Part shown: piece after piece, positions 1 to 64,000 of the stretch
Numbering within the stretch: the stretch's first letter is position 1
Layout of the letters: each line of letters starts with the position of its first letter
Assembly (NCBI GenBank): GCA_943788405.1
Contig: CALSQD010000002.1
Span: forward strand, 1,325,701 to 1,389,700
Origin: an uncultured Flavobacteriales bacterium
GTDB taxonomy: Bacteria; Bacteroidota; Bacteroidia; Flavobacteriales; BACL11
DNA: 64,000 bases
Reading direction: 5' to 3'
Program-made: the position numbers and the translations under genes
Notes under the pieces: generated by a model
Told to the model about the DNA's origin: nothing
Database searches by the model: none
The model's input: only the letters and a program-made list of their open reading frames with translations

Positions 1-3000
1 TAAATTCATACATCCTATTCCACTCAAACATTTTACTATAAGTAGGTGCTATAGGATAAGTATTTCCATATGAAGATGTTAAACTTCTTAATTGGGTTTC
101 ATTATAATTTCTATCTACATCCGTTCGAAATGAGAATGACTTTGGCATAGTGTTAAAATTAATATCCTTTATTAATCGAAAGTAAGGCGATTTAGGGAAT
201 TTAACTTTGGCAAATGGTTTTATATTTTTTGGTTGCGTATTAAAATTATAAGTTAATGCTCCTCTGTAATTTACAGTACGATTTTCCTCAATATTTATAT
301 TTCGTATAGATGTTTCATTTTTTGAATAGGAAACTGAGAAATTTTCAATATCATATACTTTTGGTTTCTTAGCTACTTGCCCTTTCTTATTAGTCTTTGC
401 CTTTCTTACATTTGTGAAATTAATACTCTTACGCTTCACATAATCCTGAACTATATGTTTTAAAGAATCTTTTTTGGCAGCATTATCAAGTGCCTTTAAT
501 GAAGTAGTCAATAAAATATCTGGGTCAAGTGGGTTATATTGAGGATTCTTAACCGACTCAGAATTCCCTATATACATAGGCACTTTTACGCCATAATCTT
601 CTGGGAAGAATTTACCTAAATCAAAAGAAGATGAAAAATCATATTGGTAAGCATTGTATTTTTGGCGTTCATTTACTTTTTTCTCAATACTACCAAAACC
701 AACAGTACTCATATTACCTGAAAGAGTTACATTTCCAAAATCAGCTAATTTAGCCGTTAACCTACTGTTAGCAGCCCAACCTCCATACTCATCAAAGTCA
801 GTAAGCCTAAGTTCATTTACCCAAATTTGCCCACATTTAGACAAACCATCATCAGCTGAATTTACACTTACTTTTTTAGGGTTTCTTACACCAATCATTA
901 TTGTTTTTACTTGTGCCAGATTAGGGTTCCCAACAACAGTTACCCTACCTCCGCTCGTATGTTTAATATAGGGCAAACTAACCTCTGAACCATTAAAATT
1001 TCTTTCTTGTTTAGACAATTGGAAAATTTCAAAAGCAATATCAATCTCATTTTCAGTTGGCCAAATATCATCTGCTGAACTTGTAAAATGATTAGTTGGC
1101 GTTAAAGAAATTTCATACTCATAATAGTTAGCCGTGAAGTCGGTTCCTAAACGAATAAAGCATGATAAATCTCCTTTATTCAGATCATCTTCCTCTCCCT
1201 CAGTATGCACAAACATTTTTATACGCTTATAGGCTCTAACATCAATATCGGCAGTTTTATAAGCAGCACGAGAATCACCATCTTGTAAATCACATACTTT
1301 TAATACTAATGATTGTTCATTTTTTTGTCTAAGTGATGTAGTTGTATTATCTACTTCTTGCTCAATTCCAGGAGGCAATACATAATTGATTGGTGAACGA
1401 TTTCCATTTTCTTCAATATTTACAGCCGACACATCAAAAGTTGTTTCTCCTTCATCATCCAAAGGAATGTATTCCCCAGGCTCTGCTAATGAAAAGTTAT
1501 ACCTTCTCCATTCTCCTCTTACTAATTCCAATGTAGCAAAACGACAAATAATTGGCTGATGAAAATCAGTAAAGGCTATCCTCATAAAACGAATAGATTT
1601 AAAATCTCGAATACTTCCAATAACATTATCAGGCTGATAAACTGGAACTCTAAATTGGTACCATTTTATATTTCTTGTTTGCCCGTTTTCTGTTTTTACA
1701 GTAGTTTCTAGCACATCAGATATATGACTATCCCCAACATCCATTCCAGGAAATAACCTAACTTTATATTGAAAATAACTTTCTGTCTCACTTAGAGTAT
1801 GATCTCTATTTAGATCCTCAGTGTTTGGTTGAGAGGATGCAGCTGTAGGGTAAGTTTCAGGCGAATTATCGGTAGTAACCGAATTTCCATCTGTATTATT
1901 AAAATTCTTATATCTATCTAAAATTAATTCTGATCTACTATCAAAATCTGAGCCTCTGAAATAATGGAAATCATCTGCTGAAGGATCCTTTACTGCATTT
2001 TTGTATGCAGTAGAATTTGTACCATATGCTAAAGCTAAAGGTTGAATATAAACTAAATCAAAGAATAATTTTTCATCAGTATTTCTTAGTCCATCCATAC
2101 CGACATCCTGGAACTCTCTAGAGGTAGGATCATTATCAAAGGCCTCAACAATAGAAAAATTAGTAGGCACTCTACCCCAAGCTGTTGTATCAACATCTTC
2201 AACAGTGGCTGAAGTTGGCAATCCATTTTCAAAACTTTTATATCCATCTCGCAATACATCTTCCGATATATTTCCTAGGTGTAAATACATATCACCACCT
2301 GAATGATTAACTAAACCATCCTCATCATTAAAAGGATCCATCATCCAGAACTCTACAAACTCAATATTAGCAGCTTCAAAATCATTCGTCTCCAACTTAC
2401 GCATTATCCCTCCCCAATTTTCGGAAGGAGATATTAAAGTTCCATCAGCATTTAATCCGTTAACCGTATAATTATTTGGTCCTCTTTCCTGAGGGTAATA
2501 AGCTAAATCTAGCACTGCTAAATTTGTAATCTGACTCCCTAAGTCTGGATCTTTGTTTGGAAAAACCTCTGTTTCCAACACCTCTCGCGCATAATGATAA
2601 GATTGCTGGGCTATTGAACTTCCATTTGCTAAAGCAATAGTTTTATTTACATTTGGAGGAGTAATAGAAGTGCTTCTAAAAAATAGCGGATCAATAGTAT
2701 ACCATGCTAGTTTAGCTCTTTTATAACCCAACATCAAATCATTATTCAATGCTGAATTCATAAAAATATCTTCTTGTTTTTCTGGTATAGATGCCATACG
2801 CCAGGCTCCCATATTTTTAATATCTATTGATGTTCTGCTCGACTCAAAGTCATCAATATACGAAATACCTTCCTCTCCAACAGCACTATGATGACCAGGT
2901 ATAAGATGTGCAAATTCAGCAGTAGCTATTAAACGAGATTTTGCTTTTGTTTCAATTAAAGGCAACCAATCAACTGCACGAGTTAACCATGGCGCCTCTG

Positions 3001-5260
3001 TTTGATAATTCCCATCCAAACCCCAAATAGTATTAGAAATTGGCTCATCACCAGTATTAATTTTTTGTGTGTATGGGCGTTCAGTTAAATTCAACATAGT
3101 CGCTCCAATCAAGAAATCTTTATTAATTTCATAATCCGCATGTAAGCCAACTAATGTTTTATTCTGTATTCCAAACATAGAATTATTCTCTAAAGAGATT
3201 TTAATTGGCACTCCTGAATTTAAAATTCCTTCATTGATAATAGTAACACGCCCTAACATATAATCAACTGTATAATCCTGATTTTCAGTTAGCTTTTGTG
3301 AACCTGCCGTTACCGTAACTGACCCCTCAGGAACATTCATAGCATTCAGGCGAATTTCAGCACCTGATGATGATTGATAAGTTCCTTTCAATCTGAATCT
3401 ATTCAATTCAGGATATTGTTGCGCAACTGTAAGGGTAGAGTCATACAATGCTTGATACACATATTTTTTTGCAAGTGTTGGGTTGTTAATCTTATTGTAC
3501 AAATGAGAACCAAACGGTTCGCGTACAGGAAAAATGACTCTTCCATTTGAAGCTTTAGCAGTTACCCCTTCTATAAAATCAAATACTCCATCTGACTGAG
3601 TATCCATCTGCTGATTTAACCTATCTAAATTTAATACTTTTATTAATGGAATTCCTTCTAGATTTCCTTCACCAATATAATTAGTTAGTGCCCCTGATTC
3701 TTCAGTATTTTCGTAAACAACATCTAGTACAAAACCATCTTTACTCATTTGGTAGGCACCAAGAGCATAAACATTTTTCATCATCAAATCCCAGTTAGGA
3801 AGTAATGGCGTGAAATTTGTTCCTTTTAATAATTTTACAAATAATGCTTCTGGTGCATTTGGTCCTGTTGAACTAAGTTCTCCTACTTGAAAAGTTTTAC
3901 TCCCTCTAGTATATTGAAAAGCAACTGCTAAGACCTCATCATTATTAAGTGCTTGATTCAAAGAAATATATCCTAACTGATTATTGATAGTAAACTCTGA
4001 TTCAGAAAGCTTTCTTGCACGCTCTAATTTTTCATAATCTTGGGAGGCTGAGAAAAAAGCAGAATAAGGAGAAAATATATTATTTACCTGATTAATATCT
4101 CTAATTCCACTATGCTGATTAGTTAAATTATAGAAAAGGTTATTTGTGGCATTATCAGGTACTTCTTGAAAAGTAAGGGCTCCTGCAAAATTAGAGTTTG
4201 TATTATACACTTCTGTCTCTCCTAAATCTAAAAAAGAAACAATGTTTCTAGTATTTTCAGTAGTTCCCGTTTTATTAGTTACCCAAACCTCTACTTTTGT
4301 AATATTAATTGCTGAATTTACAAAAGGTAAGTTTGCTAAAGCTACATCATAATTATCCTTAAAATAATGTGCTAAAAAGAAATGCTTGTTTGCTTCATAT
4401 TGGTCAGCATATACATCAAATTCTGAAGTTTGCGCACCACCACTCACTTCAATTTCTGAAGTTGTACTTTTTTGTTGAGATAAAATACCTGTAATTGTTG
4501 TACGCCCAAATTGGAGTTGAGTTTTAAAACCAAATAACGATTGACTACCTGTTATCAAAGTTCCATTTAAAGGCAAACTAACATTACCAACCTCTAGCTT
4601 TTTTATGATTTCATCCTCATAACCCGTATATTCTAGCTTCATTTGATTCTCAAAATCAAAAGTACTTTCGGTATTAAAGCTTGTTGTTAATTTTAATTTA
4701 TCACCAATTTTACCAATTACATTCATTTGTATTTTCTCTTGAAAATCAAAAGATGTAGTCTTTCTTTGTTCTTCTGGTAAAGCAGGGTTATCTAACCTAT
4801 TAATTTTTAAACCAAAAATAAGTTCAGCAGAACCTTGAGGTCGAATATCAACAGCATTACCTCCAAAAATTCTATCAAAAGCTTGTCCAGGTATAAATAA
4901 TTTTGGCAAACCTAAAGCGGAAGTCTGATTACCCATTCTCTCTTTAGATCTATCACTCCAGTAATCAGTAATAGATTTATTCATCTTATATTTCTGGTAA
5001 TCTTTAAAACTAAGTGCCCTAGCATTACCTTCATCAAGATTACCAATCTTGTCCTGAATAAAATATTGATTAGTTTTTAAATCATACTGAACCTTATTGC
5101 TAAAATTAGGAGGATTATACATAAATACCCCTCCATTTTGATTTCCGGAAAAAGGATAAGCCAAAGTGGTATCGGTAGTAGATTGCCCCCACAAAGTAGC
5201 ATTTGCAAAAATAAATGCAAATACGAATACGAATAACTTATGGTTTTTATTGCTTTTCAA
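1..5260 (-). CDS. sprA: SprA, T9SS/gliding-motility outer-membrane translocon (partial; the C-terminal part lies beyond the window start)
   Basis: The minus-strand frame is stop-free from 5260 to the window edge (1753 codons). It is absent from the ORF track because no stop lies in the window. My hand translation of the 5' end gives (TTG)KSNKNHKLFVFVFAFIFANATLWGQ as a signal peptide. It continues ...RPQGSAELIFGLKINRLDNPALPEEQRKTTSFDFQEKIQMNVIGKIGDKLKLTTSFNTESTFDFENQMKLEY..., which I recognise as the conserved SprA N-terminal region. An in-frame TAG at 5264-5266 leaves TTG at 5260 as the only start ahead of the signal peptide. Confidence 0.85.
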   Translation of the reverse strand, partial: MKSNKNHKLFVFVFAFIFANATLWGQSTTDTTLAYPFSGNQNGGVFMYNPPNFSNKVQYDLKTNQYFIQDKIGNLDEGNARALSFKDYQKYKMNKSITDYWSDRSKERMGNQTSALGLPKLFIPGQAFDRIFGGNAVDIRPQGSAELIFGLKINRLDNPALPEEQRKTTSFDFQEKIQMNVIGKIGDKLKLTTSFNTESTFDFENQMKLEYTGYEDEIIKKLEVGNVSLPLNGTLITGSQSLFGFKTQLQFGRTTITGILSQQKSTTSEIEVSGGAQTSEFDVYADQYEANKHFFLAHYFKDNYDVALANLPFVNSAINITKVEVWVTNKTGTTENTRNIVSFLDLGETEVYNTNSNFAGALTFQEVPDNATNNLFYNLTNQHSGIRDINQVNNIFSPYSAFFSASQDYEKLERARKLSESEFTINNQLGYISLNQALNNDEVLAVAFQYTRGSKTFQVGELSSTGPNAPEALFVKLLKGTNFTPLLPNWDLMMKNVYALGAYQMSKDGFVLDVVYENTEESGALTNYIGEGNLEGIPLIKVLNLDRLNQQMDTQSDGVFDFIEGVTAKASNGRVIFPVREPFGSHLYNKINNPTLAKKYVYQALYDSTLTVAQQYPELNRFRLKGTYQSSSGAEIRLNAMNVPEGSVTVTAGSQKLTENQDYTVDYMLGRVTIINEGILNSGVPIKISLENNSMFGIQNKTLVGLHADYEINKDFLIGATMLNLTERPYTQKINTGDEPISNTIWGLDGNYQTEAPWLTRAVDWLPLIETKAKSRLIATAEFAHLIPGHHSAVGEEGISYIDDFESSRTSIDIKNMGAWRMASIPEKQEDIFMNSALNNDLMLGYKRAKLAWYTIDPLFFRSTSITPPNVNKTIALANGSSIAQQSYHYAREVLETEVFPNKDPDLGSQITNLAVLDLAYYPQERGPNNYTVNGLNADGTLISPSENWGGIMRKLETNDFEAANIEFVEFWMMDPFNDEDGLVNHSGGDMYLHLGNISEDVLRDGYKSFENGLPTSATVEDVDTTAWGRVPTNFSIVEAFDNDPTSREFQDVGMDGLRNTDEKLFFDLVYIQPLALAYGTNSTAYKNAVKDPSADDFHYFRGSDFDSRSELILDRYKNFNNTDGNSVTTDNSPETYPTAASSQPNTEDLNRDHTLSETESYFQYKVRLFPGMDVGDSHISDVLETTVKTENGQTRNIKWYQFRVPVYQPDNVIGSIRDFKSIRFMRIAFTDFHQPIICRFATLELVRGEWRRYNFSLAEPGEYIPLDDEGETTFDVSAVNIEENGNRSPINYVLPPGIEQEVDNTTTSLRQKNEQSLVLKVCDLQDGDSRAAYKTADIDVRAYKRIKMFVHTEGEEDDLNKGDLSCFIRLGTDFTANYYEYEISLTPTNHFTSSADDIWPTENEIDIAFEIFQLSKQERNFNGSEVSLPYIKHTSGGRVTVVGNPNLAQVKTIMIGVRNPKKVSVNSADDGLSKCGQIWVNELRLTDFDEYGGWAANSRLTAKLADFGNVTLSGNMSTVGFGSIEKKVNERQKYNAYQYDFSSSFDLGKFFPEDYGVKVPMYIGNSESVKNPQYNPLDPDILLTTSLKALDNAAKKDSLKHIVQDYVKRKSINFTNVRKAKTNKKGQVAKKPKVYDIENFSVSYSKNETSIRNINIEENRTVNYRGALTYNFNTQPKNIKPFAKVKFPKSPYFRLIKDINFNTMPKSFSFRTDVDRNYNETQLRSLTSSYGNTYPIAPTYSKMFEWNRMYEF

Positions 5261-5275
5261 TTCCTAATAAAGTAA

Positions 5276-55594: not shown

Positions 55595-55625
55595 AAAAAT
55601 CCCTGCCATATTGGTGGGGATTTTT
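55595..55625. terminator. Bidirectional terminator between korB and the convergent gene remnant
   Basis: AAAAATCCCT-loop-GGGGATTTTT, with U-runs available on both strands. Confidence 0.55.
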
Positions 55626-56418
55626 ATTTTACCTTATAACCATAAGACTTTCGCATAAACTTATAATTATCTAAGTGATAATGTATGCCCTCTACCCTTT
55701 GATCAATCCAAACATCAAAAATAATAAGCTCTGGTGTACGCGATTGCCACTTGTACCACCCTTTTTGCTCCCTAAGTTTTTGCAATGATTTTGCATGTAG
55801 CTTTTTAGTAAGCTCCAAATCATAATTAGTAGTTAAGGATAGCAGAGTAAGTAATATAGCTTTTTGCCGTGCATTCAAGCCTTGTTTGTTATAATAGAAA
55901 TTACGCAAATGCTCTATCTCTTCAAGGGCTAAAGCTGAATCATCAGCATCAATAGCTGTAAGTACTTTTAGCAAACGAATATTAAAATGCCAACCCTCTC
56001 TATCTTTTTTAAGAGAGATAGTTTCTGCTAAATGATGATTTACTGTTGTATAATCCTCCTGAATATAGGCACATACAGCTGAATAATAATGCCACTTAGC
56101 TTGTTGCAATGGTGTTTGTACAGTAAAGCGGTGCTTTATTAACTCTTTGCATAGCATAATTGCCTCTGGCAATCTATCTGCAAAAAATAAAGCTAAGAAC
56201 TTTGTAATATTTAACTGATAGTAATTATAGGTATTTATACCTAAAAATGGTGATGCTATTTCTATATACTTAAATGAATCTTTTGGGTTAGCACTAAATA
56301 CAGCATTGTATGCTAATGTATTATAAATATTTCCTTCTCTACTAGCTTTATATACTAAAGGGGTAGCTTTTATAAGCTCTAATATACATAGTATGGTTTT
56401 TATTGAGCTTAAATACTT
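55624..56418 (-). pseudogene. 5'-truncated or start-less remnant of a helical-repeat (TPR-like) protein gene
   Basis: The frame is stop-free for 265 codons (56418 to 55624). There is no ATG, GTG or TTG in the first 82 codons (KYLSSIKTILCILELIKATPLVYKASREGNIYNTLAYNAVF...). The first usable start is TTG 56172, which the ORF track uses. The frame is closed upstream by TAA TAA. Confidence 0.55.
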
Positions 56419-56537
56419 TTATTACAATTGATTATATTCGGTTATAAACTTTATTTACTTTATAAGTAAATAGTTTCTTAAAAAGAACTTAAAAAATAAA
56501 ATAATATATTTGCCTCGCAATTATTTGATGTAAAAGG

Positions 56538-56559
56538 CTGTTAAAAAAAGTGTTAACAG
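56538..56559 (-). terminator. Weak candidate terminator about 100 nt downstream of the TonB-dependent receptor gene
   Basis: CTGTTAA-N8-TTAACAG forms a 7-bp stem. On the minus strand it is followed by CCTTTT. Confidence 0.3.
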
Positions 56560-56654
56560 AATTAAAAATAGAGGGGGAGATTCGAATCTTTCTACCCACT
56601 CATTTGCGTGGATTTCTTTTGCTAATTTATGAAGAACTAAATTATCATTTGATA

Positions 56655-59060
56655 TTAAAACTCAATTAACAACCCAATGCTAGGAAGGACTGTGCCAGAG
56701 TTATTAATGATCTCATATAGGGGGTAGCTTTCTGAATTTTCTCCCGTACCCTCAACTAAAGGCCCTAAATTTGGATCTATTCCATATTCAGATGGTAATT
56801 GTCTTTTTGCATTTAAAATATTTTCAATATCGATATAAGCATTTAAACTCCAAGATTTAAAGAACCATTTCTTATCAATTCTAATATCAAGTCCATGCTG
56901 GCCTTTCAGGCGTTGGGTGTTTAATAAATTATAATCTAGTACACCTCTTTGATTAATATCCCAAATACTTTTATTACTTGAATTAATTAAATCAGTAGGT
57001 GTGTAGGGTGATCCACCAGAATAACGATACTTAATCCCTAGCTCAATGTTATTCTTAAACTTTTTACCAGCTGTCATATTTAGTATAAATCTATTATCCC
57101 ATTTAGATGAAATCAATTTTCCTTCATTATCTTCAAATCTACTGTAATAATATGTTGCTGATAGTATTCCGTAAATACTTGAACTCATTTTTTGTTGTGC
57201 TAAAAGTTCTATTCCGTAACTATTACCTTTTGATATAGATGATACGTCCTCATTACCAACTACACCAAAATCATCTCCTAAATTTGCCAATGATATAGAA
57301 TCAAGTATTGAGAAGGGGTAATTACTATACCTCTTATAAAATGACTCTAATGAGATTTTGCTATAGCTAGAAGGATTATATTCAATTCCTATCACTGCAT
57401 GGTCACAAGTAATATATGCAACATCTTTGTTAAGGTATTTGCCATTATTCTCAAATCCTAATATAGTATAGGATGGTAATTGATGAAACCTACCAATATT
57501 ACTATTAATACTTGTTTTACTATTAAGGTTGTAAGCTAATGATAGTCTTGGAGAAAAATTATTTGAATTTGCATTGTCAGTAAATGAATTTCCGTCTATT
57601 CGTAAGCCAAATGAAGAAGTTAGTTTATTTTCAATGTATGTTTTGCTTATTTGTGTAAAAGCTCCATATTTTATAAAATGTAAATTAACATTATTAATTC
57701 CCGTAATAATACTATCTCCAATAGTAAATATCTGATTCGTATTGTTTGTATATGTTGCATCTTCTAAATTAGATCCAATTATAATTGAATAACCATTTCT
57801 TTTAAAATTATACTCTAAGCGTGTTTTATTCTCGATCTCTTCTGATTTGTAATCTAGAATTTTTTGTGAATTTTCATCTGCATAATCTAAATACTTTAAA
57901 GCAGTATTATCAAGATGGTTTCTACTCATTACAAAAAAGAGGTTTGAGTTATCAAAAAAATGTCTCCAAGTACCTCCAATTGTGTAATTCCATTGCTTAT
58001 TTATAACTAAATTATTTAGATTATAATTATTTAATGCAATTTGCATCGTATCTTCTTCATCATTGTTAATATCTTTATTAAGAGTGAAATCATCAATTGT
58101 AGCTATTCCAAGAAAGTTAAATTGATTCTTTCTATCTGGTTTAAAAGTATATTTAAACTGCATATCGTTATAGGTTGGTAAAAAAGGTAATTTTAATGCT
58201 TTGAATAAAAATTGTAAGTATGATCTTCTTACCGATAACAATAGAGTAGACTTTTTAGATAGCGGTGTGTTTAGCGTTAGTCCAGCATCGCTAGATCCTA
58301 GAGCAAACGAACCACTTATTTTTTCTTCATTTCCTTCAATCAGCTTTAATTCCATTACAGAGCTAAGTGCATTTCCTCGGTTTGCAGGAAAAGCTCCAGT
58401 GTAAAAATCAACTTCTCTAATAAAATTAACATTTAAAATACCTACTGGACCTCCGGATGACCCTTGAGTAGTAAAATGATTGATAGTTGGTATTTCAACC
58501 CCATCTAAGAAAAATTTATTTTCAGATGGCGAGCCTCCCCTAACAATAATATCGTTTCTAAAACCTGATGATGTAGCCACTCCAGGCAAATTTGCTACTA
58601 CTCTAGAGATATCTCTATTTCCACCAGCACTTTTAGAAATTTCTGAAGCATTAATCGTTCGCAAACTTACAGGGCTAGCTTGTGTTTTATTAAAAGTATT
58701 TCCCCTAACTTTTACTTCCCCCAAAAGCTCTGAATTTTCACTTAGAAAAAAATCAAGTCTGAGACTTTTGTTAGAGCTTACCTTTATTTCTGATTGAATA
58801 TCTGTATTAAATCCAATATAACTACATTTAAAGTTATAAGCACCAGCATTTAAACTCAAAATCTCATAGTTTCCATTAATATCAGATGTAGCGCCAATTG
58901 TTGTCCCTTCAATAATAATGTTTGCAAAAGGTATCGGCTCGTTATTTAAGGTATTACTAATTGAACCGTATACTTTTACACTTTGAGAAGATACAACATT
59001 TGAAAATGCGATAAAGCTAATAAATAGAATCGTATTTTTTATAGAAACTTTTTTATTCAT
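56655..59060 (-). CDS. TonB-dependent outer-membrane receptor with an N-terminal carboxypeptidase-regulatory-like domain
   Basis: 801 aa with a signal peptide. It has a CarboxypepD_reg-like segment (VYGSISN...PIPFANIIIEGTTIGATSDINGNYEI) and a plug region (…DISRVVANLPGVA...IIVRGGSPSENKFFLDGVEI). A long barrel ends ...SIGLLIEF. Confidence 0.85.
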   Translation of the reverse strand: MNKKVSIKNTILFISFIAFSNVVSSQSVKVYGSISNTLNNEPIPFANIIIEGTTIGATSDINGNYEILSLNAGAYNFKCSYIGFNTDIQSEIKVSSNKSLRLDFFLSENSELLGEVKVRGNTFNKTQASPVSLRTINASEISKSAGGNRDISRVVANLPGVATSSGFRNDIIVRGGSPSENKFFLDGVEIPTINHFTTQGSSGGPVGILNVNFIREVDFYTGAFPANRGNALSSVMELKLIEGNEEKISGSFALGSSDAGLTLNTPLSKKSTLLLSVRRSYLQFLFKALKLPFLPTYNDMQFKYTFKPDRKNQFNFLGIATIDDFTLNKDINNDEEDTMQIALNNYNLNNLVINKQWNYTIGGTWRHFFDNSNLFFVMSRNHLDNTALKYLDYADENSQKILDYKSEEIENKTRLEYNFKRNGYSIIIGSNLEDATYTNNTNQIFTIGDSIITGINNVNLHFIKYGAFTQISKTYIENKLTSSFGLRIDGNSFTDNANSNNFSPRLSLAYNLNSKTSINSNIGRFHQLPSYTILGFENNGKYLNKDVAYITCDHAVIGIEYNPSSYSKISLESFYKRYSNYPFSILDSISLANLGDDFGVVGNEDVSSISKGNSYGIELLAQQKMSSSIYGILSATYYYSRFEDNEGKLISSKWDNRFILNMTAGKKFKNNIELGIKYRYSGGSPYTPTDLINSSNKSIWDINQRGVLDYNLLNTQRLKGQHGLDIRIDKKWFFKSWSLNAYIDIENILNAKRQLPSEYGIDPNLGPLVEGTGENSESYPLYEIINNSGTVLPSIGLLIEF

Positions 59061-59069
59061 TCTGTAATT

Positions 59070-60089
59070 TTATGATGTGTGAATTAAGCTTGACCAAAAT
59101 TCGTGAGGTACATGATTACTAAATTTACTGTTAGGAGCAAGAATTACTGATACAGCATCATGTGAATGTAAAGATTCTTGGTGAGAGCAAATTACTCGAA
59201 AATCTTTGACACGTGTATCATTTACTAACTGTTCATATAATAATCTAGCAGCATCTTCAACAAACTTGAGATAAGATCCGTTGAGTTCAGCAAACGCCAT
59301 CTCATCTTCTCTTTTTACTATTACTTGAGTTTCAGTTTTTAAGGCATTTATACACATTTCTTGTAAATCTTCAATCCATACTGTATTTTCAAATTTAATA
59401 GATATTCTTGCTACTGAGCGCTGTGAGTGTGATACAGTTATTTTGTTTCTATATTTTTTAGCATGTTCTGCAAGTTCATAAGAACAAGGACAAGCTGAAG
59501 AGTAAACAAAATCAAAATGTAAAAACTTTATTATATCTCCTTTATTATCGATATTACTTTCTAAAGTGCAGTTATAATATTGATATCCTGAGTTCTTAGA
59601 TCTTAAGGATGATTGTAATATAGGGTAAGAAAAGTGTAATCCAATTCTTGCATCAAACGTCTCTAGATCATCTTTATAGTTAAGTAATATTTTATCTAAC
59701 TTATTATAAACTTTTTCATCTTTATATTTGTAGAAAGATCTCATAATACGAGACATATTAATACCTTTCTTATGAGCAGCTAAAGATACAGTGCCTGTTA
59801 CTTGAGTTTCAAGTTCTATATCCCCTCCTTCTCGTTTATCATACTTAAGAGGTAATCTGAAATTATGAATACCTACTTGTTGTATAGCTACAGGAGCCCC
59901 TTGTATTAAAGAAGAAGGACCATTCTGTAAGTCTGGAAAAGTCTTAATATCATCTTTAGTGGGTTTATAATCAGTATCATAATCTCTATTAGGCTCATAG
60001 TACCTTTCGGAATGTTTGTTGTTAGGAGCTTCTATTGTAGACTCAGCATCTCCAATCCATTCATATTTTTTGTCATTTTTTTTATTCAT
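59070..60089 (-). CDS. folE2: GTP cyclohydrolase I type 2 (FolE2/MptA family, GCYH-IB) with an N-terminal extension of about 50 aa
   Basis: 339 aa. Several blocks align by eye with the FolE2 sequences I know: IQQVGIHNFRLPL, KGINMSRI, SSACPCS...SHSQRS, VKREDEMAFAE...KFVEDAARL and ESLHSHDAV. Confidence 0.85.
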   Translation of the reverse strand: MNKKNDKKYEWIGDAESTIEAPNNKHSERYYEPNRDYDTDYKPTKDDIKTFPDLQNGPSSLIQGAPVAIQQVGIHNFRLPLKYDKREGGDIELETQVTGTVSLAAHKKGINMSRIMRSFYKYKDEKVYNKLDKILLNYKDDLETFDARIGLHFSYPILQSSLRSKNSGYQYYNCTLESNIDNKGDIIKFLHFDFVYSSACPCSYELAEHAKKYRNKITVSHSQRSVARISIKFENTVWIEDLQEMCINALKTETQVIVKREDEMAFAELNGSYLKFVEDAARLLYEQLVNDTRVKDFRVICSHQESLHSHDAVSVILAPNSKFSNHVPHEFWSSLIHTS

Positions 60090-60099
60090 ATTGATCCCA

Positions 60100-60555
60100 T
60101 TATTTTGTTAGAGGCTCATATATTGCTGAATTATTTGTACCGCCTTCATAACATTCAACATTTAAAACTTTAACTCTTCCTTTTGTCTCAATAAATATCA
60201 TTTTGTTTATGTAATTGTAAACATAAGTGGCAAATTTCTCACATCCAACTCCATTTAATACTCTTAGTTGTATTAAATTTTGTTCTGAAAGTTTTTTAAA
60301 TATTGATAATTGAGGATCATCTTCTGCAACTATTGTTGTATGGTCAAACATGTAGCTCATGTGTTCCTTTATTCCATTTCTTTTAAATGAGCCAAAATCA
60401 CAAACCCAGTTTAATTCGCTTAGGCTTCCTGTAAAGGTGACTTTAAACTTCATTGCGTATCCATGAATATATTGACAGTGAGAATGTTTAGCTTTCCATT
60501 GTCTAAATGCTGTGCTATATCCATCAAAAATTTTGGTACTGTTGAATTCGTTCAT
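60100..60555 (-). CDS. QueD/PTPS-fold (T-fold) protein with a non-canonical metal site
   Basis: 151 aa. The region ...YSTAFRQWKAKHSHCQYIHGYAMKF... aligns with the QueD block ...FEAAHRLP...CGRLHGHSF.... The Cys and the middle His are kept. The first His position is Phe, and HGH reads HGY. Confidence 0.7.
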   Translation of the reverse strand: MNEFNSTKIFDGYSTAFRQWKAKHSHCQYIHGYAMKFKVTFTGSLSELNWVCDFGSFKRNGIKEHMSYMFDHTTIVAEDDPQLSIFKKLSEQNLIQLRVLNGVGCEKFATYVYNYINKMIFIETKGRVKVLNVECYEGGTNNSAIYEPLTK

Positions 60556-60556
60556 T

Positions 60557-60652
60557 TTTTTTTTACAAAAATACTTTTTTTTTATTAATGTATAATTATT
60601 TTTATAAAAAGTTATACATATTTAAATTATATATGTATTTTTGTAAAAAAAA
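60557..60652. promoter_or_regulatory. Mirror-symmetric divergent promoter/operator region
   Basis: Perfect 18-bp inverted arms lie at 60557-60574 and 60635-60652, and each carries TATTTTTG. The concentric inner elements are the palindrome TTTTTATAAAAA (60599-60610) and ATGTATAA-N16-TTATACAT (60588-60619). Confidence 0.6.
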
Positions 60653-60825
60653 TGATGAATAAATTTCTAAGTACCTATTATCCAATATTACTTGCTTTTG
60701 CTTGTATGTTGTATTCTATTGGGTTACATATAATAGGAGACCCAGAAGGAGCGCAGTACACAGCACATTGGCCTGGTACAATTTTACTATTTGCTATAGC
60801 AATAAGACAAAGAAGAAAATCATGA
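60652..60825 (+). CDS. 57-aa two-TM membrane peptide (not in the ORF track)
   Basis: Hand translation gives MMNKFLSTYYPILLAFACMLYSIGLHIIGDPEGAQYTAHWPGTILLFAIAIRQRRKS. It has two hydrophobic helices and a basic tail. The TGA stop overlaps the next ATG (ATGA at 60822-60825). Confidence 0.5.
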   Translation: MMNKFLSTYYPILLAFACMLYSIGLHIIGDPEGAQYTAHWPGTILLFAIAIRQRRKS

Positions 60826-60977
60826 ATTTGAGTATGCTTATAGTAGGATTTGTAATTTTTTCTCTTTATATTATTGGACTTATATATATGATTAATGTAA
60901 GTCATAAAGAACAAGAGCAAGATTTATTAAATGATCCAGAGATTCCTAAAAATTTTAAAGACAAATTAACTAAATAG
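60822..60977 (+). CDS. 51-aa single-TM membrane peptide
   Basis: The sequence is MNLSMLIVGFVIFSLYIIGLIYMINVSHKEQEQDLLNDPEIPKNFKDKLTK. This is the hydrophobic, internally consistent part of the 91-aa ORF-track entry 60702-60977. It is translationally coupled to the preceding ORF. Confidence 0.5.
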   Translation: MNLSMLIVGFVIFSLYIIGLIYMINVSHKEQEQDLLNDPEIPKNFKDKLTK

Positions 60978-61027
60978 TTGTGTTTAATTTAAATGATATC
61001 TTATTATTTAAGATAAATAACTGAATT

Positions 61028-61921
61028 ATGAATTTAGGTTACGCTTGCATTAATATGACTTTGGGAGAACATAAACCCAAAATTACTACTAATCGTAGTA
61101 TGATTAAAAAAACTTTTAAAGAAAAAGGTATTACATACGCATCTGAATTGGCTATTCAAAACTGCAGAGATCTAGTTGAGATAATTAAATGGAATAATAA
61201 GAATGGAATTAACTTCTTTAGGTTAACCTCTGATTTGTTTCCTTGGGCATCTGAGTATAATCTCACAGAGTTACCAAATTACAATCTCATTGAAAATATA
61301 TTAGGTCTTGCCGGAGCACTTTCGAATAAGTGTGGGCAACGTATCACAGCACATCCTGGTCCGTTTAACGTGTTAGTATCTCCTAAGGAACACGTAGTAG
61401 AAAATACTATTGCTGATTTAACTTTACATGGTGAAGTCTTTGATATTTTAGGATTGAGTAGAACTCCTTATAACAAAATCAATATACATTGTAATGGTGT
61501 TTATGGTGATAAGATAGCTGCAATGGATAGGTTCTGTAAGAACTTTGAGAGGCTGCCTGAATCAGTTCAAACTCGTTTAACTGTAGAGAATGATGATAAA
61601 GCAAGTATGTACTCTGTAAAAGATTTAATGTACATTCATGAACGTATTGGTATTCCTATTGTATTTGATTACCACCACCATAAATTTTGTACAGGAGATT
61701 TATCAGAAGAAGAAGCGCTAAAACTTGCAGTGTCTACTTGGGGTGATATAAAGCCTGTAGTTCATTATTCAGAATCTAAAGCATTGCATGAGCGGAATGA
61801 TAAGTTAAAACCTCAGGCTCATTCAGATTATATTAAAGAGATTCCTAATACTTATGCATTAGACTTAGATGTTATGGTAGAGGCAAAAGCTAAAGAACTG
61901 TCTATCATTCCATTTTTATAA
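61028..61921 (+). CDS. uvdE: UV damage endonuclease UvdE
   Basis: 297 aa. All the UvdE TIM-barrel blocks I know are present: LGYACIN, FRLTSDLFPW, AHPGPFNVL, INIHCNG, LTVENDD, IVFDYHHH, VVHYSES, AHSDYI and DVMVEAKAKE. Confidence 0.9.
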   Translation: MNLGYACINMTLGEHKPKITTNRSMIKKTFKEKGITYASELAIQNCRDLVEIIKWNNKNGINFFRLTSDLFPWASEYNLTELPNYNLIENILGLAGALSNKCGQRITAHPGPFNVLVSPKEHVVENTIADLTLHGEVFDILGLSRTPYNKINIHCNGVYGDKIAAMDRFCKNFERLPESVQTRLTVENDDKASMYSVKDLMYIHERIGIPIVFDYHHHKFCTGDLSEEEALKLAVSTWGDIKPVVHYSESKALHERNDKLKPQAHSDYIKEIPNTYALDLDVMVEAKAKELSIIPFL

Positions 61922-61945
61922 TGAAGGAATATTAATAGTTATAAA

Positions 61946-63970
61946 ATGATAAAATTTTTGTGGAAGTATAAATACATCTTCCTTTCACTTATTTCAATGT
62001 TATTATTAGTTTCATTAAATAATTTTAGTGGATTAAAAATTTTTTATGAAAGCGAAAGAATAATTGAATTATCAAATGAGAGCCAAGATATAATTGACAA
62101 GTCTCTAGATGACAAGAATTTAATTTTGCTAGCCATTGAATTTCAAGATTCAGTTAAATATCAAGATTTGTTAGATTTATCTAATGTATCACTAAAGATA
62201 TCTAAATATCAAAACACAAAATCTGTCAAAAGTATTTTTAATGAAAGGGTTTTGATAAAATCAAGTGTCATACCGTTTGCAATAAAGATTCTTAATATTG
62301 ATAATTATGATAAATATAAAACTTCACTTTTAAAAATAAAAAAATACGGAAGTAAATTTGCTGATGATGATTTGCACTCTTTTTTATTCATTATAAAATC
62401 TAAAGGTCTTGAAAGTGATGAACAAAAAAGAGACTACCTTAATAAATTAGAAAAAGAATTTTCACAGAATAATACTAAAGTATATATCACAGGTCAAATA
62501 AAGTCAGAAATTTATATGCAGGACAATGTTACTAAAGAATTGCTTTTATTTATTATTTTAAGTGGTTTCTTATGTAGTTTAGTTTTATATTTTTACTTAG
62601 GAAATATTAAACTAGTTTTAATAAATTTTATCTCAGTTTGTATTTCACTAATCTTCTCATTTAGTCTTTCAAATATATTGTTTGGTGGTATTGAGTTAGT
62701 AATGATACTTATACCAGCAATAGTTTTCATTATCACGATATCAGATTTTATGCATTTACTTAATTCTGACAAATTGTATAAAAACAAATTTAGATCATTT
62801 AAAACTCAGTTAGATAAAATAGGTATGCCTGTATTTATTACATCACTAACTACTGCTATTGGGTTTTTAAGTTTTATGTTCTCATCTTTAATTCCTTTGT
62901 TCAGATTTGGCTTTATTACTACTATTACAATTTTTATCTCTTTGTTTGTAATTGTCATATTGTATTCATTAATTATTAACTTTAACATACATAAGAATAT
63001 TAAAAATAATCATTTTTTAGATGATTTAATATTTTCAATTGTTAATCTTAAAAAATCCTATTCATATATATTACTAGCGTCATTTTTAGTTCTGTCTTTT
63101 TTAGCATTTAATAATTTTAAAGTTAATAATTTTTTAACAGATGAAATTAACAAAAATTCTAATTTGTATTCTGATATTAACTTCTTTGATACAGAGTTTG
63201 GGGGAATAAAACCGGTAACTTTTATTGTGAAAAATGAGAACCCATCATTATCTAGTTTGGATTCACTTAAGGAGATCATTATAAAACATAATTTTGCTAT
63301 TGATTTTTCCTTTAATGATTTTTCAAAACCTGACAATAATGATTATCTTATAAAGGCAAGAAGTAAAGATATAGGCTCAAGTAAATCAGCGGTTATTTTT
63401 GATGATATCCTGTTGAAATCAAAAGATCTTTCGTTAGATTTAGAAATTGCTGGGGTAGGGTTTCTATTTGATAAAATTAGTAATAAAATGACTTTTGAAA
63501 TTATATTTGGTTTAATTGCAGCAGTGATAATAATTGGTCTAGTTTTTGTTTTACTAAATAATTTTAATTGGTATTATTTTCCAATTTCATTAATTCCTAA
63601 TTTATTGCCATTAATGAGTACTATAGGATTTTTGTCAATTTTTGGTTTTTATTTTAGTCTTTCTAATACTTTTATTTTAGCTATTGTCTTCGGTTTAATT
63701 GTTGATGATTCAATTCATATTATTAATGCCTATAGTATGTCTAGAAAGAAAGGGTTAAGTATAAAAGAGTCAATTTCTCATTGCCAAGCTTATACTTTCA
63801 AAGCTGTTATTAAAACATCTGTAGTAATTATATTTACCTTATTCCCGCTGTTGTTTTCAGAATTTAAATCCATAAGTCAATTATCAATAATTACTATTAT
63901 AGCTGCAGTTATAGCATTATTATTTGATATTATTTATCTACCTAAAATGCTAATTAAATATATAAATTAA
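61946..63970 (+). CDS. RND-superfamily (MMPL/HpnN-like) inner-membrane transporter
   Basis: 674 aa with two homologous halves. Each half is one TM helix, an extracytoplasmic loop of 130 to 180 aa and five TM helices. The pattern is SSD-like, and the sequence is extremely rich in I, F, L, N and K. Confidence 0.75.
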   Translation: MIKFLWKYKYIFLSLISMLLLVSLNNFSGLKIFYESERIIELSNESQDIIDKSLDDKNLILLAIEFQDSVKYQDLLDLSNVSLKISKYQNTKSVKSIFNERVLIKSSVIPFAIKILNIDNYDKYKTSLLKIKKYGSKFADDDLHSFLFIIKSKGLESDEQKRDYLNKLEKEFSQNNTKVYITGQIKSEIYMQDNVTKELLLFIILSGFLCSLVLYFYLGNIKLVLINFISVCISLIFSFSLSNILFGGIELVMILIPAIVFIITISDFMHLLNSDKLYKNKFRSFKTQLDKIGMPVFITSLTTAIGFLSFMFSSLIPLFRFGFITTITIFISLFVIVILYSLIINFNIHKNIKNNHFLDDLIFSIVNLKKSYSYILLASFLVLSFLAFNNFKVNNFLTDEINKNSNLYSDINFFDTEFGGIKPVTFIVKNENPSLSSLDSLKEIIIKHNFAIDFSFNDFSKPDNNDYLIKARSKDIGSSKSAVIFDDILLKSKDLSLDLEIAGVGFLFDKISNKMTFEIIFGLIAAVIIIGLVFVLLNNFNWYYFPISLIPNLLPLMSTIGFLSIFGFYFSLSNTFILAIVFGLIVDDSIHIINAYSMSRKKGLSIKESISHCQAYTFKAVIKTSVVIIFTLFPLLFSEFKSISQLSIITIIAAVIALLFDIIYLPKMLIKYIN

Positions 63971-64000
63971 TAGGAGGCTAATGTTGGGGTTATTAACAAG

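Follow-up and report, generated by a model that had tools for sequence, protein, structure and literature searches.

Two divergent operons sharing a CarH/LitR-type operator: a probable light/UV-protection locus with a FolE2–QueD-like enzyme pair and UvdE in marine Flavobacteriales

We analysed a 64-kb stretch of DNA (hereafter the window) from an uncultured low-GC (0.33) marine member of Flavobacteriales, in which genes for a QueD-like enzyme, the GTP cyclohydrolase IB FolE2 and a TonB-dependent receptor (TBDR) run divergently from genes for two small membrane proteins (sp57 and sp51), the UV damage endonuclease UvdE and an MMPL/HAE3-type RND transporter. We hold, with moderate confidence, that these genes form two divergent operons of a light/UV-protection regulon that share one CarH/LitR-type operator, with the product of the enzyme pair and the induction by light both deduced; the pterin/7-deazaguanine enzyme pair and UvdE would then probably be switched on together by light. 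A preliminary description of the window had offered three readings of the locus, namely a make-export-reimport system, a zinc-sparing regulon and a UV/light-stress module in which a pterin would act as chromophore or screen. As far as regulon membership goes, we favour the last of these: a carotenoid/photolyase/rhodopsin regulon has the same operator, and UvdE is found in the operon of the regulator itself in one of the loci surveyed.

Results

A single palindrome lies between two mirror-image predicted promoters

The seven open reading frames (ORFs), their gaps, the ATGA coupling of the two small ones and the 96-nt spacer were re-found at the positions originally given, and the family assignments hold. 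The features of the locus are as follows, in window positions:

56655-59060, minus strand: TonB-dependent receptor (TBDR), 801 aa, with CarbopepD_reg_2 and Plug domains; 9 nt after FolE2
59070-60089, minus strand: GTP cyclohydrolase IB (FolE2; NF010200); 10 nt after the QueD-like gene
60100-60555, minus strand: QueD-like T-fold enzyme (PTPS/QueD-like; PF01242) of a CxxxHGY family, with F17, C27, H31, Y33 and D71-H72
60566-60573, minus strand: predicted -7 promoter box TATTTTTG of the QueD-like/FolE2/TBDR operon, 10 nt from the ATG and 16 nt from the operator
60588-60619, no strand: operator-like palindrome with the core GTATAA-N16-TTATAC at 60590-60617; putative CarH/LitR-type repressor site
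60636-60643, plus strand: predicted -7 promoter box TATTTTTG of the sp57-sp51-UvdE(-MMPL) string, 8 nt from the ATG and 18 nt from the operator
60652-60825, plus strand: small membrane protein of 57 aa (sp57), first gene of the plus-strand string; one hydrophobic segment by a crude count
60822-60977, plus strand: small membrane protein of 51 aa (sp51), overlapping the 57-aa ORF by ATGA; one hydrophobic segment by a crude count
61028-61921, plus strand: UV damage endonuclease UvdE (TIGR00629)
61946-63970, plus strand: MMPL/HAE3-type RND transporter (PF03176), after UvdE

Aligning the DNA upstream of the QueD-like–cyclohydrolase pair across lineages revealed a conserved palindrome, TTGTATAAC-N12-14-RTTATACAA with the core GYATAR-N16-YTATRC, which is followed by a TAnnTTTG box, the -7 promoter element of Bacteroidota with G at position -5 (PMC6847099, PMC7641319). 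Palindrome and box together are found in approximately 15 of 17 lineages, before pairs of both the FolE2 and the FolE type. The window contains a single site in its 64 kb, with a 28-bp core at 60590-60617 and a position weight matrix score of 35.6; no score of 18 or higher was seen in 20 shuffles. The site falls within the spacer between the two gene strings (60556-60651, 96 nt), where its core is centred between two mirror-image TATTTTTG boxes, 34 nt away from each start codon, and a protein bound there would cover approximately -29 to -56 of both promoters. As the spacer is mirror-symmetric, we take the operator to serve both promoters, and the presence of one operator between two divergent -7 boxes agrees with the earlier proposal of a single shared control region. 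The distance from the -7 box to the ATG is only 10 nt (60556-60565) on one side and 8 nt (60644-60651) on the other, which, with G at -5, implies that the mRNAs of both operons would be nearly leaderless (about 3-5 nt, all A).

Two other modes of control were considered and rejected. Recurrence of UvdE, UvrC and UmuDC near the pair had prompted the idea of SOS/LexA control, and the Bacteroidota motifs GGA-N5-TCC and CTAA-N5-TTAG do not match the operator. Control by a riboswitch or another RNA element was dismissed as well: Rfam, run over the whole window, gave no match at gathering thresholds, preQ1 and cobalamin riboswitches included, and only two chance-level matches at E<=1 in the 50-64 kb part. 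A sigma-70 promoter scan returned 54 sites versus 58 expected, and no terminators; the sigma-70 model is uninformative for Bacteroidota.

The operator is linked to a CarH/LitR-type regulator and to carotenoid, photolyase and rhodopsin genes

We fetched 23 further loci carrying the gene for the presumed regulator and counted the core motif over 663 kb, finding 64 sites as compared to 1.3 in shuffles. The regulator is a 293-aa MerR_1 + B12-binding_2 protein, scoring 49 bits for MerR_1 and 22.7 bits, just under the cutoff of 23, for B12-binding_2. Wx9EH and ExHxxG, which we take to be the adenosyl-B12-binding signatures of CarH, are present at fixed positions in all 15 of the regulator copies examined. 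The palindrome is located 27-33 nt before the ATG of the regulator gene in 21 of the 23 loci, sometimes with a second site serving crtI, and since the site stands at a fixed distance before a CarH-type gene, this is the pattern expected of autoregulation. In these loci crtB-crtI run away from the operator on one side, while the regulator gene leads on the other side into an operon with SDR/DUF1731 and, further along, lycopene cyclase; a variant of the site lies in the divergent crtI/MerR-family intergenic region.

Further sites (loci carry our own L numbers) precede a photolyase gene (L045), a DUF2452-SOUL/MsrA operon (L043, L051), a CIA30 gene, a GSHPx operon and a cupredoxin-like gene, and a copy of the operator separates the gene for a 98-aa MazG-like pyrophosphohydrolase from a divergent Trx-like/MsrB-like operon (L024:4147-5290). 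UvdE is itself a member of the regulator's operon in L067, where the operator is followed by the regulator gene, a 167-aa ORF and UvdE with gaps of 8 and 12 nt; in L064 UvdE stands about as far behind the regulator gene, and both UvdE proteins are 64-66% identical to that of the window. Furthermore, at four loci (L005:6111-6976, L025, L026 and L028) a rhodopsin-blh-photolyase/cryptochrome-family cluster is divergent from the QueD-like pair across a shared operator region, and the rhodopsin gene has its own TAtgTTTG box beside the CarH-type operator, which suggests that rhodopsin expression may be under B12-photoreceptor control in these lineages. No established mechanism by which light induces rhodopsin in flavobacteria is known to us, and our literature search found no paper that describes the flavobacterial regulon or links proteorhodopsin, flavobacteria, PTPS and GTP cyclohydrolase.

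The CarH-type operon and its neighbours at L043:13306-18307, L049 and L051 also hold conserved genes of no or obscure family: two proteins of approximately 152-154 aa, SDR/DUF1731, DUF2452 and a SOUL-MsrA fusion, with CIA30 found elsewhere. We consider these genes candidates for photoprotection functions.

Several of the operator-linked genes are antioxidant rather than strictly light-related (MsrA/B, GSHPx and Trx), which speaks for a different explanation: the enzyme pair would serve constitutive or otherwise regulated queuosine or folate housekeeping, the palindrome would bind another regulator, such as a sensor of oxidative stress, and the pair would have no relation to its neighbours UvdE, TBDR and MMPL transporter. 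The wide variation among the neighbours of the pair (see below) is in keeping with it, as are the two lineages that have the pair and no operator. It fits poorly, however, with the autoregulation pattern in front of the CarH-type gene, with the presence of crtI/crtB, photolyase and rhodopsin in the regulon, with the mirror-symmetric spacer whose operator would serve both promoters, and with the co-operonic placement of UvdE and the regulator elsewhere. We regard this explanation as unlikely.

Only the QueD-like–cyclohydrolase pair is conserved

From metagenomes and genomes in GTDB we assembled 37 loci around QueD-like homologues, representing approximately 17 lineages, onto which every gene of the window was mapped; the genomes were scanned with a profile built from 16 sequences, and flanks of 10 kb were taken around matches on long contigs. 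The sole constant feature is a QueD-like gene followed directly by a GTP cyclohydrolase I gene, seen at 33 of the 37 loci. The cyclohydrolase of the pair is FolE2 in about half of the lineages and the canonical zinc-dependent FolE (PF01227) in the others.

The seven-gene arrangement is real, though conserved in part only. On a 1.1-Mb metagenomic contig of this organism (ERZ10646672 contig_3486) an independent gene caller predicted the same seven genes, both small ORFs included. The arrangement recurs in L020 and L041, in L069 with the TBDR missing, and in L021 with both the TBDR and the MMPL transporter missing. Only in the species-level lineage of the window does FolE2 have the TBDR behind it: this position lacks the receptor in L021, though the QueD-like protein and FolE2 are 92% and 96% identical to those of the window, and in L069, though UvdE is 90% identical, while TBDR orthologues at 90% and 83% identity reside in unrelated genomic contexts, not beside FolE2. 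The MMPL gene is present in L041, L069 and, in a different arrangement, L031 (49% identical), and absent in L021. The 57-aa ORF is kept divergent from the pair in L006-8 (65%), L014/15/20/21 and L069, and the 51-aa ORF is kept in L021 (78%), L031 (69%) and L069; both small ORFs are thus found divergent from the pair in several lineages, and UvdE likewise only in the closest ones. The other neighbours of the pair vary widely, and most lineages have the pair without either transporter.

Because only the QueD-like gene and the cyclohydrolase gene are constant while TBDR, MMPL and UvdE are variable, the seven genes are not one dedicated system but two back-to-back operons, and the earlier view of a compact seven-gene unit has to be given up. 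Judging from these neighbourhoods, the TBDR and the MMPL transporter are lineage-specific passengers and not parts of a pathway. This distribution bears directly on the make-export-reimport proposal, according to which the enzymes make a metallophore-like pterin-derived compound that the MMPL transporter exports and the TonB receptor re-imports. The juxtaposition of a biosynthetic pair, an inner-membrane exporter-type protein and an outer-membrane receptor in the window is what speaks for such a loop; with neither transporter in L021, no receptor in L069, the close receptor orthologues placed elsewhere and the pair standing alone in most lineages, we consider it extremely improbable.

Several observations on individual neighbours were made in the course of the survey. 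The MMPL gene (window 62001-64000) has a GC content of 0.24 as compared to approximately 0.33 for the window, an outlying composition that fits its patchy distribution among relatives. At L070:6001-6906 and L071:6001-6900, UvdE proteins with 83-85% identity to that of the window are encoded on contigs of viral appearance, with orphan ORFs in long runs on one strand and with a ClpP-like head-maturation protease, Cpn10, HSP20 and DUF4494; these copies have no operator, and a GC-rich terminator lies just upstream. UvdE seems to have passed between these bacteria and a phage. One metagenome-assembled genome (MAG), SI048_bin47, which is near-identical to the window organism, is the source of both L020 and L023 and carries two pairs, one with FolE2 and one with FolE, each preceded by the operator; a binning error is possible. 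Finally, a gene of the Fur family is found 0.2-8 kb from FolE-type pairs (L009:4248-4688, with homologues in L010-13, L022, L023, L027, L030 and L032), where it adjoins a MerC-like gene; its promoter showed no copy of the operator.

The QueD-like protein belongs to a distinct CxxxHGY family

The QueD-like protein scores 55 bits with the PTPS model PF01242 and 31.5 bits with the QueD equivalog TIGR03367, versus a cutoff of 89.25 for the latter. The signature of QueD is CxxxHGH, with both His residues binding zinc (PMC5041015, PMC10516641). The window protein has CQYIHGY instead, and CxxxHGY is present in about 250 of 270 homologues, including representatives of 50%-identity clusters, with most of the exceptions being fragments. 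When the family profile is aligned with E. coli QueD, Tyr stands in for the motif's final His and Phe17 for the third zinc-binding His (Thr15 in the alignment to QueD2), that is, two of the three canonical zinc-ligand positions are substituted. The catalytic Cys (C27) and the Asp-His dyad (D71, H72) are invariant in the family, and a near-invariant His directly before the Cys might compensate for the lost zinc ligands, so that the family may either do without a metal or have rebuilt its metal site.

Neither do the signatures of other T-fold enzymes apply. PTPS-II and PTPS-III are recognised by CxxxxxHGH and ExxHGH, respectively (PMC5041015), while in the window protein the Cys is four, not six, residues before HG, and the Glu position is taken by Gln28 (Q/K/R/S/H/N across the family, with Glu in 2 of 270). 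For QueD2 the defining features are Cx4HGH, a third His and an extension at the C- or N-terminus (PMC9894224); the window protein has Cx3HGY, Phe at the position of the third His and a length of 151 aa without extension. As judged by sequence signatures, it is a member of a distinct CxxxHGY family that matches none of the published QueD, PTPS-II, PTPS-III and QueD2 definitions. Its AlphaFold model (pLDDT 88.8) has the T-fold, and Foldseek matches it to 4ntm, 4ntk and 7v0f, structures of QueD and QueD2, at probability 1.00. A single-sequence search of solved structures gave no PTPS match and a profile search was needed, the best match of which was QueD2 of Acinetobacter baumannii (PDB 7v0f, E 1.9e-14).

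The substituted zinc site lends some appeal to the zinc-sparing regulon proposed earlier. In its Zur-type form, zinc limitation would derepress FolE2, a QueD paralogue poor in zinc ligands and a TonB receptor that takes up zinc. As a GTP cyclohydrolase I, FolE2 does without zinc (PMC9894224), Phe and Tyr occupy two of the three zinc-ligand positions of the QueD-like protein, whose best solved relative is the low-zinc paralogue QueD2, and both the Fur-family gene near many FolE-type pairs and the single MAG with a FolE-type and a FolE2-type pair would be in line with it. Yet the operator also precedes pairs that use the zinc-dependent FolE, it is tied to the MerR/B12 regulator and to carotenoid and photolyase genes and not to Fur-family genes, the TBDR is not conserved beside FolE2, and the annotated window revealed no COG0523 protein or other zinc-paralogue gene. 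Boxes of the Fur family have a 7-1-7 architecture, which the operator lacks. Zinc control of the locus is, in our judgement, improbable; the lost zinc dependence may instead be an adaptation to zinc-poor seawater without Zur control.

Phage homologues point to 7-deazaguanine chemistry

The QueD-like family matches PHROG 2389 and is 37-51% identical to the QueD proteins of 108 phage genomes. In five of the six phage lineages inspected the homologue is encoded in a QueE-QueC-QueD-FolE(-DpdA/TGT/QueF) cluster, directly before the cyclohydrolase; four of these five lineages have F...CxxxHGY and one has CxxxHGH. Experiments on several of these phages have shown that practically all dG gives way to 7-deazaguanine in phiST and in phi13:1 and to fdPreQ1 in Flavobacterium phage immuto_2-6A, that phiSM carries dPreQ1 and mdPreQ1, and that in Iggy 16.5% of dG is replaced by dPreQ0 (PMC10516641, PMC10484667); neither of the two papers comments on the altered CxxxHGY motif. 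The Flavobacterium phage homologue that we found is from immuto_3-5A, a sister isolate of immuto_2-6A. Since phages that use the protein as their QueD contain 7-deazaguanine DNA, the family is, by pathway logic, most likely an active 6-carboxy-tetrahydropterin synthase. Another reduced pterin is a possible product in cells, because there is no QueE or QueC near the cellular pairs and the contexts in MAGs of other phyla differ. The latter are L034:6938-10444 and L036:2717-5879, in MAGs binned as Myxococcota and Proteobacteria, where a CxxxHGY homologue (61-65% identical) comes after a SAM methyltransferase and a radical-SAM enzyme that binds B12, and no cyclohydrolase is encoded nearby; this context may represent a different pterin pathway.

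Among the more distant phage members, the homologue of Synechococcus phage Ssp-JY38 (L074:3986-4423) keeps Phe at the third-ligand position and has CxxxHGH, and so the Tyr is not universal in distant members. The homologue of Stenotrophomonas phage Mendera (L073:3956-4621) has 221 aa and lies outside any que cluster. We also examined fusion proteins as functional clues, and the only one was a homing-endonuclease fusion pointing to phages: P0125 (493 aa), in which a GIY-YIG/NUMOD homing-endonuclease region, typical of phage genomes, is fused, or read through, to the CxxxHGY domain. In Cellulophaga phage phi13:1 a MazG-like gene adjoins FolE.

Gene families of the locus and the remainder of the window

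Families were assigned with curated models (Pfam, and NCBIfam/TIGR equivalogs) and their bit-score cutoffs. FolE2 reaches 267.7 bits with NF010200 (cutoff 215) and 230 bits with PF02649, and UvdE 219 bits with TIGR00629 (cutoff 124.45) and 220 bits with PF03851, both proteins scoring at equivalog level. The transporter matches PF03176 in two stretches (57.7 bits versus 20.5) and has 12 hydrophobic segments by a crude hydropathy count, which upholds its description as a 12-TM RND/MMPL-type protein; every subfamily model scored far under its cutoff. For the TBDR the Plug model PF07715 gives 39.8 bits, and the barrel model has no match in the window protein but is recorded for the orthologue P0353. 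Intergenic gaps measure 9 and 10 nt on the minus strand, and 50 nt (before UvdE) and 24 nt (before MMPL) on the plus strand. The 50-nt gap contains neither a -7 box nor a terminator, and UvdE is probably co-transcribed with the small ORFs.

Downstream of the receptor, beyond a 482-nt non-coding gap (56173-56654), lies a 182-aa ORF without family match (window 55624-56172, minus strand), of which a 177-aa version was called on the 1.1-Mb contig. A very large ORF of at least 1754 aa (window 1-5265, minus strand) extends past the first position of the window. Elsewhere the window carries housekeeping genes, namely those for RuvA/B, malic enzyme, alternative complex III, a phosphate transporter, BamA/OmpH and 2-oxoacid:ferredoxin oxidoreductase. 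Nearly all of the larger ORFs were annotated with Pfam, a few being left unscanned, and this revealed no que, fol, crt or photoreceptor genes beyond the locus, and the window has no tRNA gene. The reported absence of FolB, FolK, FolP and TGT was confirmed by this annotation within the same limits, and that of QueC, QueE and DpdA by searches with phage seeds (E<1e-3), which also found no QueF; there is no second FolE or PTPS gene in the window.

Discussion

Our results suggest a mechanism in which, in the dark, a B12-loaded repressor would sit on the 28-bp palindrome and block both promoters, and light, by destroying the B12 adduct, would release the repressor and allow both strings to be transcribed. 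GTP cyclohydrolase I, here the zinc-independent FolE2, would convert GTP to dihydroneopterin triphosphate, from which the QueD-type CxxxHGY enzyme would most likely produce 6-carboxy-tetrahydropterin, the committed precursor of 7-deazaguanines such as queuosine. The plus-strand string would supply the two small membrane proteins and UvdE.

More speculatively, and with clearly less confidence than we place in the two operons themselves, one can picture sunlit-ocean Flavobacteriales in which a B12 photoreceptor gates the synthesis of a 7-deazaguanine precursor or of a new reduced pterin. It would do so through a QueD lineage with a replaced zinc site that phages have borrowed for DNA hypermodification. 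The outcome would be either light-controlled queuosine modification of tRNA, or a hitherto unrecognised photoprotective or antenna pterin that acts together with photolyases, UvdE and rhodopsin in one regulon. We find this picture possible but doubtful.

Several points weigh against the interpretation of the locus as part of a light/UV-protection regulon. The regulator gene is absent from the 64-kb window and is found in relatives only, such as L043, where the TBDR is 90% identical. We infer light induction from the composition of the regulon alone, and that UvdE and MMPL are transcribed together with the small ORFs is an assumption drawn from short gaps and the lack of promoter and terminator motifs. 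The lineages represented by L016-L019 and L032 carry the pair without the operator. The operator itself has arms TGTATA-N18-TATACA (7+16+7 geometry), spaced more widely than the TGTACA-N12-TGTACA of characterised LitR sites. As for the enzyme pair, the two zinc-ligand substitutions may confer a chemistry different from that of QueD, and because no QueE or QueC is encoded within 10 kb of any cellular pair, or in the window, a role in queuosine synthesis is unproven.

If the interpretation is correct, it provides a concrete operator and regulon for light sensing in abundant uncultured marine Flavobacteriales, one that would span UV repair (UvdE and photolyase), carotenoids, methionine-sulfoxide repair and, in some lineages, the rhodopsin gene. 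Phages whose DNA is fully 7-deazaguanine-substituted use the distinct QueD-type family, which is thus relevant to metal economy in a zinc-poor ocean and to 7-deazaguanine enzymology. The analysis also corrects an over-reading of the locus, in that the receptor and the exporter would be passengers and not a transport loop.

How does the locus compare with known systems? Enzymes of COG0720 beside GTP cyclohydrolase I are found in some folate clusters, where PTPS-III bypasses FolB; the window pair resembles these in arrangement and differs in having no ExxHGH (Q/K/R/S for E) and no folK or folP nearby. With Zur-regulated FolE2 loci it shares FolE2 itself and not a Zur-type context. QueD2 of A. 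baumannii (PDB 7v0f) is the best profile structure match and a precedent for altered metal use in a QueD paralogue, while its Cx4HGH, third His and C-terminal extension are all missing from the window protein (PMC9894224). With QueD (PTPS-I) and phage QueD the similarity is closer, comprising the T-fold, a Cys four residues before HG, the Asp-His dyad and conserved Glu residues. The protein is also encoded directly upstream of GTP cyclohydrolase I and shares 37-51% identity with the QueD of phages with proven 7-deazaguanine DNA. CxxxHGY, Phe in place of the third His, a score far under the NCBIfam cutoff and the lack of QueE, QueC, TGT or DpdA nearby in cellular genomes set it apart from QueD.

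The closest parallel for the regulon is provided by LitR/CarH, MerR-type repressors whose DNA binding is lost when light photolyses the bound adenosyl-B12 (PMC6739363). The locus had been presented as matching no described system, a view that does not stand: the LitR regulon of Pseudomonas putida includes phrB, cryB and folE, and in P. mendocina light induces the folM-folE-folX pterin operon, to whose promoter the LitR homologue binds (PMC9758184), so folE and pterin genes are already known members of such a regulon. Like the CarH/LitR regulons of Myxococcus, Thermus, Bacillus megaterium and Streptomyces, and those of class II LitR of Pseudomonas, the flavobacterial one combines a MerR-type helix-turn-helix and a B12-binding domain bearing Wx9EH and ExHxxG, a regulator gene behind its own operator and divergent from crtI/crtB, and photolyase among its members. 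With the Pseudomonas regulon it further shares GTP cyclohydrolase I together with a pterin-branch enzyme, and half-sites that resemble the TGTACA of TGTACA-N12-TGTACA (PMC9758184). It differs in belonging to Bacteroidota, with promoters of the -33/-7 type, in being known here from sequence, and in its cargo: a QueD-type enzyme in place of FolX/FolM, and in addition UvdE, rhodopsin, MsrA/B, CIA30 and the small membrane proteins. By analogy, then, the flavobacterial regulon is a variant of the LitR/CarH light regulon.

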